Below are positions 37,221 through 58,930 of a stretch of 64,000 bases of DNA, piece by piece. Below the pieces are notes generated by a model. It was not told the DNA's origin. It saw only the letters and a program-made list of their open reading frames with translations, and did no database searches. A program made the position numbers and the translations under genes. This stretch comes from Gammaproteobacteria bacterium (GTDB lineage Bacteria; Pseudomonadota; Gammaproteobacteria; SZUA-140). The DNA lies in NCBI GenBank assembly GCA_020847075.1, contig JADLCS010000030.1, positions 25,105 to 89,104 of the forward strand. Direction: 5' to 3'. Each line of letters begins with the position of its first letter. The first letter of the stretch is position 1.

Positions 37221-37296
<76 letters not shown>

Positions 37297-37461: not shown

Positions 37462-38667
37462 ATGGCGCTTTCAAATACTACAATTAAAAACGCCAGATCC
37501 ACAACCAAACCTTATAAACTCTCCGATGAAAGAGGGCTATATTTACTCGTTTCCACGACTGGGGGAAGGTTGTGGAGATTCGATTATAGATTTGGTGGTA
37601 AACGCAAAACGTTAGCATTCGGCTCCTATCCCGATATTTCACTCAAAGATGCAAGAGAAAAACGCGACGAGGCCAGGAAGCAACTTGCAAATAACATCGA
37701 TCCTAGCGCGATAAAAAAAACGCTTAGCGGGCCACTAAACGGTGAATCTTTTGAATCAGTAGCACGTGAGTGGTATCTCAAGAATTCACTAAATTGGGCG
37801 GACACTCACGCGAATAAAATCATCCGAAGGCTCGAAGCTGATGTATTTCCCTGGATTGGTACTCGACCAATGCGCGAAATCACTGCTTCTGAGTTGCTCA
37901 CAGTACTTCGCCGAATCGAATCACGAGGTGCATTAGAGACCGCACATAGAGTCCATCAGAATTGTGGCCAAGTATTTCGCTATGGCGTTGCCACTGGCCG
38001 TGCAGAGCGAGATCCATCTGGTGACTTGAAAGGCGCCCTAGCTCCATGGAAACCGAAACATTACCCCTCGATAACTGACCCCAAAGAGGTGGGAAAACTA
38101 CTGCGAGCAATTGATGAATATGAAGGGGGTATTATAGTTCGCTGCGCACTTCAGCTTGCCCCACTCTTGTTTGTCAGACCTGGTGAACTTCGGCGTGCTG
38201 AATGGCAGGAAATTGATTTCAGCTCATGTGAATGGAGAATTCCTGCCGAGAAGATGAAAGCACGCCAGAAGCATATCGTACCCCTATCAAATCAGGCTAT
38301 TGGTATTCTCAGGGAATTACATCCGGCAACGAAATATAGTCGGCGGGTATTTCCAAGTGTGCGATCTACGGATTCTTCGATGAGCGAAAACACCATTAAT
38401 GCAGCACTTCGCAGCCTTGGCTATGAAAAGGAGGTAATAACGGCTCATGGCTTTCGCAGTATGGCGTCAACATTGCTTCATGAACAAGGATGGTCCACTG
38501 ATGTGATTGAACGTCAGCTCGCTCATGCCGAGCGCAATAGCGTGAAAGCTGCGTATAACCGCGCTCAGCATTTACCTGAGAGACGAAAAATGATGCAAAG
38601 TTGGGCTGACTACTTAGATAAGCTGAAAAAAGGTGCAGAAGTTATTACATTGAGACAGAAGTCATAG
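37462..38667 (+). CDS. int: Tyrosine integrase, P4 type
   Basis: N-terminal arm-binding (DUF4102-like) block KPYKLSDERGLYLLVSTTGGRLWRFDYRFGGKRKTLAFGSYPDISLKDAREKR. Catalytic region has R...HGFRS...LAH...Y. The gene is adjacent to the tRNA. Confidence 0.93.
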   Translation: MALSNTTIKNARSTTKPYKLSDERGLYLLVSTTGGRLWRFDYRFGGKRKTLAFGSYPDISLKDAREKRDEARKQLANNIDPSAIKKTLSGPLNGESFESVAREWYLKNSLNWADTHANKIIRRLEADVFPWIGTRPMREITASELLTVLRRIESRGALETAHRVHQNCGQVFRYGVATGRAERDPSGDLKGALAPWKPKHYPSITDPKEVGKLLRAIDEYEGGIIVRCALQLAPLLFVRPGELRRAEWQEIDFSSCEWRIPAEKMKARQKHIVPLSNQAIGILRELHPATKYSRRVFPSVRSTDSSMSENTINAALRSLGYEKEVITAHGFRSMASTLLHEQGWSTDVIERQLAHAERNSVKAAYNRAQHLPERRKMMQSWADYLDKLKKGAEVITLRQKS

Positions 38668-48362: not shown

Positions 48363-49031
48363 ATGTGCGGCCGGTACACACTCACTCCTTCGCTCGATGT
48401 AATACTTGAGCACTATGCGCTTGAGGATGTGATTGAGTCCTACAGGCCCAGGTACAATATTGCCCCTTCCCAAGAAGTCCTCGTCGTACGAAGTACAGTG
48501 GAGCCGCAGCACCGAATCCTAATCCCAATGCACTGGGGCCTGATCCCGCACTGGGCCAAAGACAGGAAAATCGGTTATCGCATGATCAACGCGGTCGGCG
48601 AAACACTCACGGATAAACCGTCCTACCGTACGCCCTTCAAGAAGCGCCGTTGCCTGATACCTGCTTCCGGATTCTACGAGTGGAAGGTCGTTGGCGAGAA
48701 GGTGAAGCAGCCCTACTACATCCGCATCAGCGGGCGTGAGGTGTTCTCGTTCGCGGGGCTGTGGGAGCACTGGGAAGGTGATGGCGGTATCTATTCCTGC
48801 ACCATCATCACGACCGAGGCGAACGATACCGCCCGATCCATCCACAACCGCATGCCGGCGATCCTCGACCCCAAGGATTACGACCTCTGGCTTAACCCCT
48901 CCGCACCACAGGACGCACTCCAATCCCTGCTCGTGCCCTACACCGCCCACCCGATGGAAACGTACCCCGTTTCCAATGCCGTCAACACGCCGAAGAACGA
49001 CGATCCCCGCCTGACCGAGCCCCTGCACTAG
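48363..49031 (+). CDS. SOS-response-associated peptidase (SRAP/YedK family), abasic-site processing protein
   Basis: Starts MCGRY (catalytic Cys2) and carries RYNIAPSQ, HWGLIPHWAKD and IPASGFYEWK, the conserved SRAP signature blocks. Confidence 0.9.
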   Translation: MCGRYTLTPSLDVILEHYALEDVIESYRPRYNIAPSQEVLVVRSTVEPQHRILIPMHWGLIPHWAKDRKIGYRMINAVGETLTDKPSYRTPFKKRRCLIPASGFYEWKVVGEKVKQPYYIRISGREVFSFAGLWEHWEGDGGIYSCTIITTEANDTARSIHNRMPAILDPKDYDLWLNPSAPQDALQSLLVPYTAHPMETYPVSNAVNTPKNDDPRLTEPLH

Positions 49032-49151
49032 CTTCAAGTCTTTGAATTAGCAGGCTGATATTTGCCCGCTTGAATGTTCTCTTTTTGTTCTCTATCGTGG
49101 ACATCAAGCGAACGTCCGTTCGCAGTCCCGAACAACCCCGATCGGTGCCGT

Positions 49152-50387
49152 ATGCAAGACCACTGCCCTGTCATTTGGCCCCGCGCCATTCTTCACGTGG
49201 ACATGAACGCCTTCTTCGCCTCGATCGAGCAGCGGGACTTCCCCCGGCTCCGGGGCAAGCCCGTGGCCGTGACCAATGGGTTAACCGGAACGTGCATCAT
49301 CACTTCGAGCTACGAGGCCCGGGCCTTTGGGATTAAGACCGGGATGCGGATCAGGGAGGCACTCCAGAAGTGCCCCAAGCTCATCCAGCGCCCGGCCCGA
49401 CCGGAAGTCTATGCCCGGATCTCCACCGGCATCATGAAGGCCCTGGAGGCCATCACCCCGGATCTTGAGATCTTCTCCTGTGACGAAGCCTTCTTGGATG
49501 TGACCCGGTGCCAGAAGCTCCACGGGACCCCAGTCCGGAGGGGGAAGATGGTCAAGCAGATCGTATTCCGTGCTTCAGGCATCCTGTGCTCGGTCGGGAT
49601 CGCCGGGGACAAGACCACGGCCAAGTTTGCCGCGAAGCTGCAGAAGCCAAACGGCCTCATCGTGATTCCCCCTTGGGAAGCGGCAGACCGCCTCAAGGAT
49701 GTCCCCGTCACTCAGCTCTGTGGGATCGCCAATGGCATCGGGAATTTCCTCGCCCAGCACGGCGTCCATGTCTGTGGGGACATGCACAAGCTCCCGATCA
49801 GCATCCTCGGCCAGCGGTTCGGGAATCTCGGCCGGCGGATCTGGCTGATGTGCCAGGGGGCGGACCCGGACAAGATCCACACCGATGTCCCGGCGCCCAA
49901 GTCGATGGGGCACGGGAAAGTGTTACCGCCGAACACTCAGGACCGCCAAACCCTCGTCACCTACCTCACCCACATGAGCGAGAAGGTCGGGCAGCGGCTG
50001 CGGAAGAACAAAATGGAAGGTCAGGAGTTTCTGATCGGGTTGCGTACACTCAACGGCTGGATCGGGGACCGCTTCAGAACGAAAGTCCCCACCAGCGACA
50101 GCCGGCCGATCCTTCAGCTTAGTCAGTTCGTGTTAACCAATCTGTGGAAGGGCGAAGGCATCTTCCAAGTGCAGATCACCGTGCTGGATCCGAAGCCGAG
50201 GCGGCAGCAGATGGACATGTTTGAGGCGCAGGATGAGGTGCGGACGCAGCTCAACGAGGTAATGGACCGGGTCAACGAAAAGTACGGTGAGTTTACACTC
50301 GCGCCCGGTTACCTGATCAACCGGTCAGAAATGCCTAACGTCATCGCCCCAGCATGGAAACCATTCGGACATCGGCAGACGATATGA
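49152..50387 (+). CDS. dinB: Y-family DNA polymerase (DinB/Pol IV-like)
   Basis: ILHVDMNAFFASIEQRD (catalytic Asp) and SCDEAFLDVT (catalytic D-E), followed by little-finger-type C-terminal sequence. The start was trimmed to MQDHCPV (ATG at 49152). Confidence 0.85.
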   Translation: MQDHCPVIWPRAILHVDMNAFFASIEQRDFPRLRGKPVAVTNGLTGTCIITSSYEARAFGIKTGMRIREALQKCPKLIQRPARPEVYARISTGIMKALEAITPDLEIFSCDEAFLDVTRCQKLHGTPVRRGKMVKQIVFRASGILCSVGIAGDKTTAKFAAKLQKPNGLIVIPPWEAADRLKDVPVTQLCGIANGIGNFLAQHGVHVCGDMHKLPISILGQRFGNLGRRIWLMCQGADPDKIHTDVPAPKSMGHGKVLPPNTQDRQTLVTYLTHMSEKVGQRLRKNKMEGQEFLIGLRTLNGWIGDRFRTKVPTSDSRPILQLSQFVLTNLWKGEGIFQVQITVLDPKPRRQQMDMFEAQDEVRTQLNEVMDRVNEKYGEFTLAPGYLINRSEMPNVIAPAWKPFGHRQTI

Positions 50388-50468
50388 TCAATAATAATCT
50401 CTCGGATGTTTCAAAGTGTATTCGGCGTGACTCCGCCGGACTATCAGCGAGCGTATCATAATGTCTGA
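50388..50468 (+). pseudogene. Remnant of the C-terminus of an AraC/XylS-family regulator
   Basis: Hand translation gives ..SRMFQSVFGVTPPDYQRAYHNV*, which matches the end of the second AraC HTH (F...FG.TP..Y). Only about 25 codons are present, directly after the dinB stop. Confidence 0.35.
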
Positions 50469-50701
50469 AATTAGCCATCACACTGTGTCTGTTGTCCCCC
50501 ACCACTTAGTGGCCATATCCATGCCTCGAGCAAACGACGGGCTGTGTGTTCCCGTTTTTTGCAGGTTTTTCTCATAATCTATCTGGAAAGAGTGTAATTT
50601 CTAATCATTTGTGCACTGACATTTATCACGCAATATCGCAAATATAAATGAGGGTGGGTGTGTCATGAAGTATAAGGCTTGTTTGAGATATCCTCGCGGG
50701 C

Positions 50702-52867
50702 ATGAACCAAGCAACCCGAACTGAAGAGGAAGTCTTCGAAGATCTGGCGGCGCTCTGCAGCCGCCCTGGCTACATCCACGCCTTAGCGGCCTTGTCCTTC
50801 CGGGACAATGTGATCCTCTATAACGGTAACATGAAAGAGGAAGACCTTAGTAGGTTATCTTCTCCTGAACGTCTAAATCGATTGGAATTTAACACTTTGA
50901 TCGGCCTGATGATCAAGGCTGAAATCGATTGGTCACTTCCTACACCAAAAGTTTTACAGGGATATTTAGATGATACTGACCGCCTTCTGATCGAATTACA
51001 CGAATGTCTGTCCAGAGAATTATTTTCAGGGTTATCTAAAGAAAAGATCAAGACCGGTTCAATAAATCCATTTGAACGGGGGAAAGCGCTCCGAGAGCCA
51101 ATCTTCTACGGTGGTGAATCTGCATATAACTTTCAATACCTTGATTTATCAATTCGGAAATATGCAGCCGATGCCCCATGGCTGTACAAAAATCTAGGCT
51201 TTAACATCGACGAAGCTACGCGTATCGCAAAGACGATTGATGAACTCTATGAAGAAAAATTAGAAGCAGTTCGAGAACTGATGCGAATGCTACATCCAGA
51301 CGAATGGACAATGCTTCCGCTATTTACTTTTAACGTGGATGAGATTGCGGCGAAACATGGTTACGCCATCGATCTAGTAAAGCGGATTCTTAGCGCGTTT
51401 ACAATATCTACCGACGAACGAAATCCAGAATTCAGAACATTACAGGACTTCAATATTGCTACAGCGAAGCCATTTCTGAGGACGCCAGATGGTGAGTTAG
51501 TATTGTTGCAATCTTATTCGTTCGCTGAGGCAATCTACGACGCCCCCTTTTATTGGATGGCTCTGGACAAGGATTATCTCCCAGTACATTCCAAGAACCG
51601 AGGTGACTTTACCGAAAATTTTGTGGCGGAGCGCCTCCGCCTGGTATTTGGTCCTGATCACGTCTATCTAAATGTCAACATCATTGAGAGCAATAATAAT
51701 CGGGTCTCTGAGATTGATGTCCTGGTCATCTGGGGTAATCGAATCATCATCACACAAGCTAAGTCTAAACGACTAACCCTGGGAGCGCGGAAGGGTAATG
51801 ACCAAATGATCCGCGACGATTTCAAACATGCAGTACAAGCGGCTTACGAACAGGGGGCCATTTGCGCCAAGTGTCTGCTCGACAAAAGTTACAAGGTGGC
51901 CACTCCGGATGGAAACGATATTAAATTGCCGCAGAAGATAAAAGAAGTCTATCTTTTTTGTGTCGTAAGTGACCACTATCCGGCGTTAAGTTTTCAATCT
52001 CGACAGTTTCTACAAGTAGTTAACATTGATCAGGTACAAGCGCCGTTAGTGATGGATGTATTTGCCATTGATGCAATGACAGAAATGCTACAGTCACCAT
52101 TACAGTTCCTGAGCTACTTAAACCGCCGGGCCAACTACAGCGATAAAATCATGGCTTCATTGGAACTGGTAATTCTTGGTTATCACCTCAAATACAACCT
52201 CTGGCTAGATCCTGAGTATGACTTCGTACAGCTTGGTGATGATTTTTCAACCGCACTTGATATTGCAATGATGGCTCGACGTAACAATATAAAAGGAGTT
52301 GATACGCCAGACGGAGTTTTAACTCGTTGCAGAAATACGACGATTGGTCAGGTAATCAAACAGATTGAGGCACGACCGGAGCCTGCAACTATAGACCTCG
52401 GCTTTATGCTTCTTAGGATGAGTGAACAAGCAATTATTGATCTTAGCCGAGTCGTAAACCATCTGGCAGCTCGCACACGAGCTGATGGTAAGGTTCATGA
52501 TGCATCTTTCAGTTTCAAGGAAGACTCAGGAATCACTTTCCACTGTACTGATGAGCCAGTTTATAATGCAGGCCCTAGGTTGGAAGCCTACTGTAATCTA
52601 CGCAAATACAGAGAGAAAGCTAGAGAGTGGTTTGGCCTCTGCATGAGTTCGAAAGGTCCAAAAGTAAGGTTTGGTGTATCATTGGTATATCCATGGGCAC
52701 ATGACGCTGAGATGGATGTGAGATCAAAGTCAATGCAGTCACCGATGCCTATTGATCAGGGCCTCCGAGCTATACGTACAAGTCGGTGCAGGAGAAAGAA
52801 GATTGGTCGGAATGACCCCTGTCCATGCGGTAGTGGACGTAAGTACAAGAAATGTTGTCTTAACTAA
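50702..52867 (+). CDS. Large orphan protein with PD-(D/E)xK/NERD-like core and C-terminal SEC-C metal-binding motif
   Basis: 721 aa. The core GDFTENFVAERL...VSEIDVLVIWGNRIIITQAKSKRL fits an E...D...(Q/E)xK nuclease-fold signature. The C-terminus GRNDPCPCGSGRKYKKCC is a canonical SEC-C motif. I recognise no other domains. Confidence 0.6.
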   Translation: MNQATRTEEEVFEDLAALCSRPGYIHALAALSFRDNVILYNGNMKEEDLSRLSSPERLNRLEFNTLIGLMIKAEIDWSLPTPKVLQGYLDDTDRLLIELHECLSRELFSGLSKEKIKTGSINPFERGKALREPIFYGGESAYNFQYLDLSIRKYAADAPWLYKNLGFNIDEATRIAKTIDELYEEKLEAVRELMRMLHPDEWTMLPLFTFNVDEIAAKHGYAIDLVKRILSAFTISTDERNPEFRTLQDFNIATAKPFLRTPDGELVLLQSYSFAEAIYDAPFYWMALDKDYLPVHSKNRGDFTENFVAERLRLVFGPDHVYLNVNIIESNNNRVSEIDVLVIWGNRIIITQAKSKRLTLGARKGNDQMIRDDFKHAVQAAYEQGAICAKCLLDKSYKVATPDGNDIKLPQKIKEVYLFCVVSDHYPALSFQSRQFLQVVNIDQVQAPLVMDVFAIDAMTEMLQSPLQFLSYLNRRANYSDKIMASLELVILGYHLKYNLWLDPEYDFVQLGDDFSTALDIAMMARRNNIKGVDTPDGVLTRCRNTTIGQVIKQIEARPEPATIDLGFMLLRMSEQAIIDLSRVVNHLAARTRADGKVHDASFSFKEDSGITFHCTDEPVYNAGPRLEAYCNLRKYREKAREWFGLCMSSKGPKVRFGVSLVYPWAHDAEMDVRSKSMQSPMPIDQGLRAIRTSRCRRKKIGRNDPCPCGSGRKYKKCCLN

Positions 52868-52899: not shown

Positions 52900-53110
52900 T
52901 CACTCAAAGGTGCCCAAGATCAGTATCGCGCCCACGAATCTCACGGGTGGTCTGTATTCGACAAGCACATCCCTCAACACCACCATCCCTCGCATAGCGC
53001 CGACGCCGATGACGGCATGACTGGAACCTTGTTGAGGATGATAGTAATTGGCGCGCGGTGGCTGGGTAATTCGCGATTAACTCGTCTTATATCCTTGTTA
53101 GTACGAGCAG
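52900..53110 (-). pseudogene. Decayed second csrA-like copy
   Basis: The minus strand from 53110 reads CTGCTCGTACTAACAAGG, matching 17 of the first 18 nt of the intact csrA-like gene. It translates as LLVLTRI*DELIANYPAT, with a CTG at the start position and a TAA at codon 8 (53087-53089). Another frame then gives RAPITIILNKV, matching APIKIKINKA of the intact copy, so at least one frameshift is present. Confidence 0.6.
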
Positions 53111-53143
53111 ATTGCCTCCTAGTCGTTATGAGCGTCAATTCTA

Positions 53144-53327: not shown

Positions 53328-53525
53328 TCATGCTGACACTATCTCCTCTCGCACAACCTTTAATCCCTGCGGCGCTTCGATACCCATGCTGACTTGTGTT
53401 TTGGCTTTATTGATTTTGATCTTAATTGGTGCATCAAATACGTCGCCGATAGGCGTAGATAGATCGAGATCGTCAGCGGGGTAAATCGAAACTGACTCGC
53501 CTTCCTTCCTTGTTAGTACGAGCAT
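53328..53525 (-). CDS. CsrA/RsmA-family RNA-binding regulator, divergent island-borne paralog
   Basis: MLVLTRKEGESVSI...IKIKINKAKTQVSMGIEAPQGLKVVREEI aligns with CsrA (MLILTRRVGETLMIGD...VRIGVNAPKEVSVHREEI). There is an insertion of about 15 aa (PADDLDLSTPIGDVFDA) after strand 1. Confidence 0.75.
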   Translation of the reverse strand: MLVLTRKEGESVSIYPADDLDLSTPIGDVFDAPIKIKINKAKTQVSMGIEAPQGLKVVREEIVSA

Positions 53526-53733
53526 GTGACCTCCTTTTGTTTTCGTTATCTATACCGCAATTACACCTTATAGTAACTCCACCCCCCTGAAATACAGTCC
53601 TATTTCCGGATTGCGTCGAAACCAACAACCCATTTTTGAAAATTTCAGGACTGGGCCCCATTGATTTTTCAATTTTAATCGGCGCTTACGCGCACTCCCA
53701 GAAGGATTGTCACTTCATCTAGGAGACAATCTC

Positions 53734-56056: not shown

Positions 56057-58318
56057 TTAAGTCGTACTTTGTACCGACGACGGCCCTTCATCCATTACGT
56101 CATTCCAATCAATATTCGCGTTCAAATACTTTTCGAAAGCCTCACGGCACTTCGCTTGAGGGCCAAACACTAAATTTCGTGTCCGCTTTTCCTCTTGTCC
56201 GACGGCCTTAAAAACGATTGATTTAGTCCTGCGTATCACAGTACGGCATTGTTTGACTTGCTCTCCAAGAACTTCATAAATCTTTTTTGCCCACAGTGAC
56301 TCTTCCATTGGTGAATACTCTTTATTGGTTTTCGAGTGGGCTTCATAGTCCTTATAAGCCTCGCGCTTTTCGATAATGAGCCCGTCTTCCTCCCAATCTG
56401 TTACCCCCGCATTGATGAATTCATGCCGACTACTGCCCATGCTCCCGCTTGCAAGGCACGTGTATAGCCACTTTTCGGGTCCTTTAAGACTCCGAATTTT
56501 CTGCTCGACTAATGCATTTGTCTTTGGGACGTTTCGTACGTTGTATCCAGAAAGGTCGTAATTCAACATATCATGTAAGAACGCTTCGATTCCTCCATTA
56601 TCGATCTCCTCATATAGCGCGTCGAAGTATTTAGTATCACCTTGGTGCTTACCTGAAACATCATATATTGCGAATCGTCTTTCATCTGGTCCAGCAGGAA
56701 CGACCCAGTCTTCATTGCTCGCCATTAGAACGCTGAGCATGTTGCGGCATTGAAATGAATCAAAACCTTTCGGTTCAACCATAAATACTGGCTCAGTGAT
56801 CAGAGCTTTAATTATGCTTTCATTCTGCTTATCTCCCGCGTAATAGGCTTCATCGGCGAAAATAAACACGCTATCTCTGAGATGTACGTTGAAGTTTCCC
56901 GTTAAGTGACGAGTATGAGATATATGTAAACCATGTTGGCCGAAAAACCTGCGGATAACATGACCTAAAGTGCCTTTTCCAACACCACGTTTTCCGCGCA
57001 GTACCAAAGCTACTTCGCCCTGCTCCCAGGGTTTTTGTACCAGTCTTGCAACCCATCCCAGAAGATAATTGAATGACTGCTCGTTACAACTACTCATAAC
57101 CTCTTTTAAGTGGTATCTAAGCAGATCCCAACTGCCTGCCTTTGGTTCAATAGCCAAACCTTTCCACAAATTTAATACTCCGGGTGGCGCTACCTTCCCC
57201 GGGCCAAAAATCACTCCTGAAGTGTATTCATGCCTTCTCGGGTGCCCAAACCAAGCATCAGCTTGATTTTTCATTATTGGTTCACCCTTCTTGCTCATAC
57301 CAACCGTTACCAGTTTGTTCTGATATAGCTTACGGAGATCCTCAAATTTATGCCGAATAAAATAATCTCGTTCCAATATCTCATCGTGTGCAGGGCTGAA
57401 TACCAAGGTTTTTCCATTCTCATTAACAACCATGTACTTGCGATTCATCTCGATTACGTACTCTGGGAGGGTCTCCTCCTGCCCCAGACATAGCCAATCA
57501 GATACCTTCTGTGTTATTTGCTGACCTATGATTTCTGAAATACGCGGCAAGCCGGTTATTGGCTCGCCTCTTCCTAATTTCATACGAGTATGCTTAACAC
57601 ATGCTACTCGGTCGGTAACTTCATCATCTCTCGCTGCCTCAGCTACTGCACTTATGAAGGCTTCAGCATCTTCATCTTTAAATCCAGATCGAAGAAGAGC
57701 ACCTGATAGTGCGAGTGCCGTTTCGTGACGTCTACCCTCTTTAGGCCAGTGGCGCGCTAGTGCTGTCGCCGCAGCTATCTTTCCCAATCTTGATAGGAGA
57801 TCATTCGGTTCTATTGAAACTGGTGAAATGTCCTCCTCCCACTCAATATACTCACCACTCGTATGAACTGAACCTGGGAAAACGGTCTGCGCGCCCGTAG
57901 AACGAAGTTCTAGGAGCATCTTTCCGTCAGGCTCAGCGTATTTTTTTGTCCCGATTTCGCAAATGTACAACCAGTGCGTCCGTGGGTTACTTCTACGTCC
58001 GAATACACTCGTTTGTGGCAGGAAAACTGGCGCGATCCGGGCGGCTTCGACCGTATCAAAATCGACATCAACCAATCCCCCAGACGGTTCGCCGAGCAGA
58101 ACCCCTATATTCAGGTCCTGCCTATCGAAATATATATCCGCCTGCCCCTCATTGATGCGCAGATCAGTCCATCTCTGGATTCGTGGTCCCTTTTCTTTAT
58201 GAGGTATCGGGATGGGCGACCAACCGCGACTGATATAGTTCAACGCGCGAGATAATGGCCTGATGCTGCCCAATGTATGTGGAACTATGCTCTCGATAAC
58301 AGCAGACATATTGTTCAC
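56057..58318 (-). CDS. Replication protein: N-terminal bifunctional primase-polymerase (Prim-Pol) + C-terminal SF3/D5-like helicase
   Basis: The N-terminus GWSPIPIPHKEKGP...NIGVLLGEPSGGLVDVDFD is Prim-Pol-like. Walker A VLRGKRGVGKGTLG with the downstream block VFIFADEA is typical of P4/D5-family (DUF5906-like) NTPases. 753 aa and intact. Confidence 0.8.
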   Translation of the reverse strand: MNNMSAVIESIVPHTLGSIRPLSRALNYISRGWSPIPIPHKEKGPRIQRWTDLRINEGQADIYFDRQDLNIGVLLGEPSGGLVDVDFDTVEAARIAPVFLPQTSVFGRRSNPRTHWLYICEIGTKKYAEPDGKMLLELRSTGAQTVFPGSVHTSGEYIEWEEDISPVSIEPNDLLSRLGKIAAATALARHWPKEGRRHETALALSGALLRSGFKDEDAEAFISAVAEAARDDEVTDRVACVKHTRMKLGRGEPITGLPRISEIIGQQITQKVSDWLCLGQEETLPEYVIEMNRKYMVVNENGKTLVFSPAHDEILERDYFIRHKFEDLRKLYQNKLVTVGMSKKGEPIMKNQADAWFGHPRRHEYTSGVIFGPGKVAPPGVLNLWKGLAIEPKAGSWDLLRYHLKEVMSSCNEQSFNYLLGWVARLVQKPWEQGEVALVLRGKRGVGKGTLGHVIRRFFGQHGLHISHTRHLTGNFNVHLRDSVFIFADEAYYAGDKQNESIIKALITEPVFMVEPKGFDSFQCRNMLSVLMASNEDWVVPAGPDERRFAIYDVSGKHQGDTKYFDALYEEIDNGGIEAFLHDMLNYDLSGYNVRNVPKTNALVEQKIRSLKGPEKWLYTCLASGSMGSSRHEFINAGVTDWEEDGLIIEKREAYKDYEAHSKTNKEYSPMEESLWAKKIYEVLGEQVKQCRTVIRRTKSIVFKAVGQEEKRTRNLVFGPQAKCREAFEKYLNANIDWNDVMDEGPSSVQSTT

Positions 58319-58908: not shown

Positions 58909-58930
58909 TTCGATCCTCCTCCGCCCACCA
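58909..58930 (+). repeat. attR core (partial tRNA-Ala 3' end)
   Basis: TTCGATCCTCCTCCGCCCACCA has 16 + 6 nt identical to 37274-37296, with a 1-nt deletion at the U70 position. G+C rises sharply immediately to the right. Confidence 0.85.

Follow-up and report, generated by a model that had tools for sequence, protein, structure and literature searches.

The window analyzed here is a stretch of 64,000 nucleotides (nt) from a gammaproteobacterial contig (JADLCS010000030.1, positions 25,105 to 89,104), and it contains a gene for a 721-amino-acid (aa) protein that combines a nuclease core of the PD-(D/E)xK/NERD type with a C-terminal SEC-C zinc motif. A preliminary description had proposed this gene as a stand-alone nuclease-type defense or abortive-infection gene. 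The computational checks that were run agree with that proposal, and they suggest that the 721-aa protein is probably a self-contained anti-phage or anti-invader nuclease that moves between mobile elements as single-gene cargo. The open reading frame (ORF) itself is real. The ORF call agrees with the earlier one, homologs align from residue 1-6, and conservation extends over the whole length of the protein, with a mean column identity of 81% in one alignment (A1) and 45% in another (A2). Because residues 6-211 are conserved across homologs, the 721-aa reading is supported; a database record (P0001) of 510 aa, which covers 71% of the ORF at 100% identity, reflects either a gene that was called shorter or a partial sequence. 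The gene had also been credited with an AT-rich upstream region of its own. As to composition this holds, the 314-bp gap upstream having a G+C content of 43.9%, but an own promoter was not borne out, since a consensus pattern scan of the gap found no convincing sigma-70 site. A pattern scan found no terminator 3' of the gene.

The Pfam NERD family (PF08378) matched residues 301-392 with 28.8 bits, above its gathering cutoff of 22.1. This match includes the segment GDFTENFVAERL...SEIDVLVIWGNRIIITQAKSKRL (residues 301-358), in which an E-D-(E/Q)xK nuclease pattern had been recognized. The tail GRNDPCPCGSGRKYKKCC (residues 702-719), previously described as a SEC-C zinc motif, is equally well accounted for: Pfam SEC-C (PF02810) matched residues 703-720 with 38.7 bits against a cutoff of 20.4, the metal ligands C707, C709, C718, and C719 are present, and sequence searches of the PDB also matched the tail to the zinc-domain chains of SecA and YchJ. 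No Pfam family was found in residues 1-300 or 460-700 of the window protein or of any of 68 diverse relatives, consistent with the earlier remark that the flanks of the core match nothing recognizable. In the same Pfam scan, NERD was detected at E<=0.01 in 51 of the 68 relatives.

A first AlphaFold2 model, built with 25 close homologs, was poor (predicted local distance difference test [pLDDT] score of 65.8) and was replaced by a model built with 68 diverse sequences at 33-68% identity (pLDDT 91.5, predicted template modeling score 0.89). In the latter model, the nuclease core has the element order alpha-beta-beta-beta-alpha-beta, and the catalytic residues are placed on elements H293-316, E334-344, and E347-354. 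The core is preceded by an all-helical N-terminal domain and a small helix/strand module, which may be winged-helix-like, as read from the order of its secondary-structure elements only. It is followed by a C-terminal alpha/beta domain, a linker, and the zinc knuckle, with the pLDDT dropping to 56-77 over the final ~40 residues. The coordinates of these parts and of other features of the locus are collected in Table 1.

Table 1. Features of the 721-aa protein gene, of the island that carries it, and of a related E. coli gene. Coordinates are window positions unless a locus is named.
Feature	Coordinates	Strand	Basis or remark
Stand-alone NERD nuclease gene with SEC-C tail	50702..52867	+	ORF call, ATG start, 721 aa + stop
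Upstream intergenic region, presumed promoter region	50388..50701	+	314 bp, 43.9% GC
N-terminal all-helical domain, aa ~1-200, family-specific	50702..51301	+	AlphaFold2 model; no Pfam match in 68 members
Small helix/strand module, aa ~205-270	51314..51511	+	Model elements H205-208, H212-219, H223-232, H252-255, E258-260
PD-(D/E)xK / NERD nuclease core, aa ~293-460	51578..52081	+	Pfam NERD aa 301-392 = nt 51602-51877; model
Predicted catalytic codons	E305 51614-51616; D339 51716-51718; Q352 51755-51757; K354 51761-51763	+	Codons checked in sequence
C-terminal alpha/beta domain, aa ~465-665	52094..52696	+	Model; no Pfam match; common to remote 778-aa paralog
Variable low-confidence linker, aa 666-700	52697..52801	+	Model; weakly conserved in alignment
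SEC-C zinc knuckle, aa 703-720	52808..52861	+	Pfam SEC-C; SecA/YchJ PDB matches
tRNA-Ala(CGC), island integration site	37221..37296	+	ARAGORN; attL core 37274-37289
P4-type tyrosine integrase	37462..38667	+	Pfam Arm-DNA-bind_3, Phage_int_M, Phage_integrase
SRAP (abasic-site peptidase), then Y-family polymerase (IMS, IMS_C)	48363-50387	+	SRAP Pfam 2.5e-76; directly upstream of 721-aa gene
CsrA-like gene, intact	53328-53525	-	Pfam CsrA 3.8e-12
RadC-like JAB ORF, 97 aa	53707-54000	+	Matches positions 1-45 of the 121-position Pfam model only
PrimPol-DUF5906 primase	56057-58318	-	Island gene
attR core	58909..58924	+	Exact 16-nt repeat of tRNA-Ala 3' end
778-aa "YecA family protein" WP_038432999.1	L097 12438-14774, E. 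coli EcPF16		Immediately downstream of family member

Conservation was assessed in an alignment of 256 full-length members reaching down to ~33% identity. The predicted active site is nearly fixed in this set: E305 is present in 255 of the 256 members, D339 and K354 in all, and Q352 in 252, with E in the remaining 4. The family as a whole thus carries the PD-(D/E)xK signature, in which helix 1 contributes an acidic residue, the second strand a D, and the third strand (D/E/Q)xK. Further near-invariant residues are E62, Y136, and D157 in the N-terminal helical domain, D373, Q384, D452, and E461, and also E488 and R526, which are carried as invariant residues by the C-terminal alpha/beta domain. 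The presence of such residues outside the active site indicates that the flanking domains are under strong constraint. The SEC-C ligand pattern occurs in 229 of 255 full-length relatives (~90%), and the others end without it, some of them with basic tails. As about 10% of the members lack it, we regard the tail as an accessory feature.

The protein had been called an orphan, a label that was not borne out. A word-indexed search found at least 120 full-length homologs at 59-68% identity, and an exhaustive profile search found 795 clusters (at 50% identity) at E<=1e-30, nearly all of 660-750 aa. Relatives are present in at least 255 species genomes among those scanned and occur in the Pseudomonadota, Acidobacteriota, Cyanobacteria, Bacteroidota, Desulfobacterota, and Nitrospirota. 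Copies from Pseudomonadota share 61-64% identity with copies in metagenome-assembled genomes assigned to Nitrospirae, Chlorobiales, or Desulfosporosinus; these identities across phyla point to horizontal transfer, with binning errors in the assembled genomes as another possible source. The family is found on 38 plasmid records, 22 of which are conjugative plasmids. In E. coli, a nucleotide-level search seeded with a Salmonella plasmid copy matched at least 9 of 5,426 complete genomes. A phage origin was rejected, because tblastn gave no match among 50,697 phage records, the BFVD viral structure library contained no structure at E<=0.001 for the model, and a pattern scan of IMG/VR returned at least about five full-length relatives, the other matches listed being SEC-C tails on unrelated proteins. 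Such tails are encoded on dozens of the IMG/VR contigs (L105-L178) and are 70-95% identical over the ~20-residue motif, which indicates that the zinc knuckle is common on phage-borne proteins too.

The neighborhoods of the family were compared by calling ORFs in 80 independent genome loci and in the window and by clustering all neighbors. The best neighbor cluster occurred in 6 of the 81 loci, so that no conserved partner gene was found, the existence of such a partner was rejected, and the earlier designation of the gene as stand-alone stands. Flanking genes lie on either strand, at a median gap of ~100-118 bp. The G+C content of the family gene is on average 7 points below that of its distant flanks (Wilcoxon p=1e-10); across 68 loci it is lower than the far flanks by more than 3 points in 46 and higher in 3, and the near flanks equal the far flanks. 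The homolog closest to the window protein sits in an F-type type IV secretion system (T4SS) element (locus L081). In 7-8 of the 80 loci, the family gene adjoins the gene of a large serine recombinase, which is paired with a gene for 147 aa. In one lineage (L089 7317-11760; also L006, L007, L008, and L090-L093), a minimal insert between housekeeping genes consists of an AbiEi_4-like gene, the nuclease gene, the 147-aa gene, and the large serine recombinase gene. The AbiEi_4 regulator-like gene of L089, which encodes 205 aa and is located 66 bp upstream on the same strand, is restricted to that lineage.

Several homologs occupy positions that are linked to defense. Two E. coli genomes, GD33 and A20, carry a P4-like satellite at ssrA in which a homolog alone fills the interval from psu to int (order psu, homolog, int, ssrA); this homolog is 36% identical to the window protein over its full length (E=1e-165). 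The psu-int interval of P4 is a defined reservoir and hotspot of antiviral systems (PMC9122126), and in a 2026 study six of eight randomly chosen psu-int cargos of unknown function protected E. coli against phages (PMC13586616); none of the systems named in that study resembles the 721-aa protein. This placement is the strongest single piece of defense-context evidence. The window copy itself is not at a P4 psu-int site, being located in an island with an integrase and a PrimPol primase at tRNA-Ala. Seven other E. coli genomes carry a 44%-identical homolog in an integrative element at guaA, where HigA and PIN_12 genes lie upstream of it and the genes of a 778-aa protein with a SEC-C tail and of a DUF262 pair lie downstream; the DUF262 pair matches the PADLOC HEC-06/Orf5/SspE models. 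In Agrobacterium tumefaciens pAt (L088 3624-8815; 19 plasmid records), the homolog is flanked on one side, in divergent orientation and at ~90 bp, by the Mokosh type I genes MkoA (2e-217) and MkoB (3.7e-74) and on the other side by a radical-SAM cluster of the His-Xaa-Ser type (HxsABC). Nearest neighbors of at least 150 aa (136 in total) were also scanned, with counts taken from the 25 most frequent families. The frequent neighbors of mobile type were integrases, transposases, IS66, and serine recombinases, and those of defense type were Fic/SoFic (3), AbiEi (3), and UvrD/GajB (2-3), alongside AAA_15/21, DUF3800, and the PADLOC candidates PDC-S04/S24/S68. The preliminary description had expected homologs beside defense genes or in islands, and the P4 hotspot, the Mokosh pair, the guaA element, and the AbiEi, SoFic, and GajB contexts agree with this in a qualitative sense.

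The 778-aa protein encoded next to the guaA homolog is itself related to the family. A comparison with hhalign gave 99.3% probability (E=2.6e-20) over 482 aligned columns, extending from profile column 212 to the C-terminus (column 719) and including the protein's own D...ExK motif and SEC-C tail. Its first ~250 residues do not align with the family, and PADLOC recognized only the SEC-C tail. By these profile comparisons the 778-aa protein is a remote paralog, which suggests that nucleases with a SEC-C tail make up a wider superfamily whose N-terminal domains can be exchanged. A constant nuclease, C-terminal domain, and tail combined with an exchangeable N-terminus fit a sensor-effector protein, and specificity is therefore assigned to the N-terminal domain.

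With the model as a query, Foldseek returned a single match in the PDB at E<=0.001, the defense nuclease Upx (9WUF; E=3.3e-7, probability 1.0, 610 aligned columns, template modeling [TM] scores TMq 0.37 and TMt 0.24, root mean square deviation [rmsd] 10.1 A, 10% identity). The poorer model had also matched 9WUF, at 3.2e-4. The structure search that had been suggested thus led to a defense nuclease as the sole significant neighbor and not to a housekeeping protein. Upx is a single-protein PD-(D/E)xK defense nuclease of 1272 aa with N-terminal sensor, middle, and C-terminal nuclease domains; it is reported to be activated by phage proteins and to sense terminase, with terminase or gp16 as the trigger, and it prefers single-stranded DNA (ssDNA) and replication-intermediate structures (PMC13099982, PMC13601566). 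Like Upx, the 721-aa protein, a putative defense protein, stands alone, has no partner gene, and joins a large noncatalytic region to a PD-(D/E)xK nuclease. The settings are comparable as well, since Upx is found in genomic-island hotspots and is sometimes located beside a second copy, much as the 721-aa family is located beside its remote paralog in E. coli. In Upx, the canonical nuclease (D1161, E1176-x-K1178) forms the very C-terminal end, and the N-terminal domain holds another, minimal nuclease site. The 721-aa protein differs in having just over half the length of Upx and one central NERD core with QxK, followed by a ~200-aa domain and the SEC-C tail; no SEC-C tail has been described for Upx. 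From the structural comparison, the 721-aa family may work like Upx and may be distantly related to it.

The next Foldseek neighbors were Can2, VC1899, and Card1, which are CARF-fused PD-(D/E)xK nucleases (E 6e-3 to 4e-2). The family sequence profile matched Can2 (7BDV) at E=0.011, and the PADLOC CARF_PDDEXK models matched 16 of the 68 members and, in the window protein, ~residues 300-370. The likeness lies in the fold and motif of the nuclease core. In contrast to these nucleases, the 721-aa protein has no detected CARF or other cyclic-oligoadenylate sensor, is twice the size, carries a SEC-C tail, and belongs to a family that is not beside CRISPR-Cas type III genes; Pfam scans of the window protein and the 68 relatives found no CARF family. 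A further single-gene multidomain protein with a NERD effector is ZwsA (Zowangsin), a stand-alone NERD RNA endonuclease directed against RNA phages in P. aeruginosa (bioRxiv 10.64898/2026.04.06.716636). The spacing of its E535, D567, E580, and K582 resembles that of E305, D339, Q352, and K354. Compared by description, ZwsA differs in its VHS-DUF647-NERD-S4 order, in a NERD domain situated ~230 residues further in, and in that no SEC-C tail is described; VHS, DUF647, and S4 were not found by Pfam in the window protein or the 68 relatives.

The ~20-residue CxC...C(C/H) zinc knuckle is shared with SecA, YecA, and YchJ, with the lactococcal single-gene defense protein Rugutis, and with the PADLOC PDC-S12 and E2/E1-E2 models, and nothing else is common to them. 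In the 721-aa protein the knuckle ends a flexible linker, as in SecA, whereas the Rugutis SEC-C motif is N-terminal. SecA-like metal-binding domains bind Zn or Fe, binding to SecB and to ribosomes is known for SecA, YecA, and YchJ, and the motif of YchJ is used in redox sensing (bioRxiv 10.1101/613315). With PADLOC-DB 2.0.0 (2023), PADLOC matched no system model beyond the SEC-C tail and weak hits to the nuclease core, and no PADLOC system was assigned, in line with the earlier statement that the architecture matches no named system. No description of a protein family combining NERD and SEC-C was found in the literature searched.

On this evidence, we hypothesize a route by which the 721-aa nuclease could act in defense, to which we attach much lower confidence than to the nuclease-defense reading overall. 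The protein would be made in an auto-inhibited form, and an infection cue would be recognized by the flanking domains, chiefly the helical one at the N-terminus, in parallel to the sensor part of Upx. The N-terminal domain is favored as the sensor because this is where the remote paralog is different. Recognition would open the nuclease, predicted to be Mg2+ dependent, which would then cut phage and/or host nucleic acid, and the phage would be cleared or the infection aborted. The SEC-C tail would be an accessory that, by analogy, may dock the protein on ribosomes or SecB or may act as a metal or redox switch. A bolder version, which we consider decidedly improbable, is that of a ribosome-tethered immune sensor, in which the tail, like that of SecA, would anchor an Upx-like nuclease to SecB or at the exit of the ribosome, and the flanking domains would inspect nascent unfolded phage proteins during translation.

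A number of points weigh against the interpretation as an anti-phage or anti-invader nuclease. The QxK found in place of the usual (D/E)xK is a less common active-site variant, and activity is assumed. For every member, we infer the anti-phage role from sequence, context, and model. The association with defense genes is qualitative, and several loci (L084, L087, and L094) are uninformative on defense. The Upx match is modest by its TM score of 0.37, its rmsd of about 10 A, and its 10% identity; a central nuclease in a protein of 721 aa also differs from the extreme C-terminal nuclease of Upx. Sequence models do not link the family to Upx. The family profile did not match chain 9WUF in a PDB sequence search at E<=10, and Upx models were not among the PADLOC matches of the window protein (E<=1) or of the 68 relatives (E<=0.01), the presence of a Upx model in PADLOC-DB 2.0.0 being unconfirmed; Upx calls have been reported from PADLOC 2.0.0 and DefenseFinder together (PMC12629846). 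The possible relationship to Upx is drawn from Foldseek. Finally, a homolog on an IncFIB plasmid of Salmonella enterica (CP053577.1; L086 9001-11075) is in two pieces with no annotated coding sequence and is probably a pseudogene.

The absence of a methylase partner from this single-gene arrangement would also suit a constitutive restriction-like nuclease, type IV or solitary, in which the flanking domains would read a feature of invader DNA, for instance a modified base or a structure formed in replication or packaging. The enzyme would then cut that DNA directly, with no protein trigger and no sacrifice of the cell, which would again serve defense though by another mechanism. The putative winged-helix-like module directly before the nuclease, the proximity to DNA-targeting systems (a restriction-modification [RM]-like cluster in the window and DUF262 GmrSD/SspE-like genes in E. 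coli), and the preference of Upx itself for ssDNA and replication intermediates are all in keeping with such an enzyme. We nevertheless think it rather unlikely, as the Pfam scans of 68 members revealed no modification-reading domain (SRA, YTH, DUF262, etc.) and as the ~560 residues beyond the core, together with a ribosome/SecB-type tail, exceed the needs of known type IV readers. It is quite unlikely that the protein serves the mobile elements themselves, either as an exclusion, competition, or addiction nuclease against rival plasmids, integrative and conjugative elements, or satellites or as a stabilizer of its own element. Conjugative plasmids make up more than half of the plasmid records (22 of 38), and the F-type T4SS element, the integrative elements, and the adjoining toxin-antitoxin genes would fit this role. 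However, no conserved antitoxin or immunity gene accompanies the family, many copies are lone chromosomal insertions with no element genes within 10 kb, and cargo at the P4 psu-int site is characteristically anti-phage.

Two further explanations are drawn from the window neighbors and from database names. The window gene lies 314 bp downstream of the SRAP and IMS polymerase genes on the same strand, the locus of the closest homolog (L081) has SRAP and UmuD/UmuC within 4 kb, and a Y-family polymerase gene or fragment is located near L084, L087, and L034; the protein might on these grounds be an accessory of DNA damage repair working with SRAP and the Y-family polymerase. The other genes of the window island are, however, almost entirely absent from the surroundings of homologs: over the 80 homolog loci, tblastn found the Y-family polymerase in 2 and SRAP in 1, and a general functional link to either was rejected. 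Since SRAP/polymerase cassettes are common cargo of mobile genetic elements and the distribution of the family is too patchy for repair (9 of 5,426 E. coli genomes, as a lower bound), a repair function seems very improbable. Some RefSeq records name the homologs "YecA family protein" or "prepilin peptidase", and the SEC-C tail does match the tails of SecA, YecA, and YchJ, which could imply a housekeeping factor of the Sec pathway or of translation. The NCBIfam matches are confined to residues ~697-720 and score 29-38 bits against cutoffs of 140-158, and we regard the YecA family label as an artefact for this reason. The profile searches called for earlier thus assigned no housekeeping family; the rest of the protein is a predicted nuclease without a YecA or UPF0149 domain, and the family is rare, foreign in G+C content, and horizontally scattered. 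A housekeeping role is already contradicted by these domain tests and is hardly tenable.

If the interpretation as an anti-phage or anti-invader nuclease is correct, a widespread single-gene system comprising ~800 clusters at 50% identity in many phyla would be added to the defense catalogue. PADLOC-DB 2.0.0 (2023) has no model for the family, and the known kind to which it would belong is that of single-protein PD-(D/E)xK defense nucleases. Upx, structurally isolated so far, would gain a shorter relative that could help to show what a sensor-nuclease unit minimally requires. Discoveries of single-gene systems have become frequent, and the 721-aa family stands out among them by its spread, by its possible compact relation to Upx, and by its SEC-C tail. 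The SecA-type zinc tail recurs on defense or candidate defense proteins, including this family, the 778-aa paralog, the PADLOC PDC-S12 and E2 models, and Rugutis, and the family offers a tractable case for the role of SEC-C tails on defense proteins. Should the ribosome-tethered version prove true, defense nucleases coupled to translation would be a new class, made up of the family and its paralogs with SEC-C tails. The E. coli homologs that already reside in P4 hotspots make the proposal directly testable.

In the window, the gene is carried by an island of 21.6 kb (positions 37221-58924) that is integrated at tRNA-Ala(CGC). Direct repeats of 16 nt, identical at 37274-37289 and 58909-58924, mark its ends, and the similarity continues imperfectly over ~50 nt. 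The G+C content is 44.6% for the 721-aa gene, 50.3% for the island, and 67% for the host, and the drop in G+C content at 37-59 kb fits the island bounds. The gene had been placed in the island cargo between a polymerase cassette and csrA-like genes, and this position was confirmed by the SRAP and Y-family polymerase pair upstream and the CsrA-like gene downstream (Table 1). The island also carries the RM-like cluster, and its 97-aa RadC-like ORF is probably a truncated pseudogene. Downstream of the 721-aa gene, a 60-nt direct repeat with 77% identity occupies positions 53061-53120 and 53476-53535. On the minus strand, an AGGAGG ribosome-binding site is present in both copies, as is the beginning of a CsrA-like gene. 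The CsrA-like gene at 53328-53525 is intact, and the other reads LLVLTRI followed by a stop codon, which marks it as a truncated remnant. In Salmonella enterica, the two-piece plasmid copy on CP053577.1 lies among VapBC, DUF4365, NUDIX, AAA ATPase, and nucleotidyltransferase genes.

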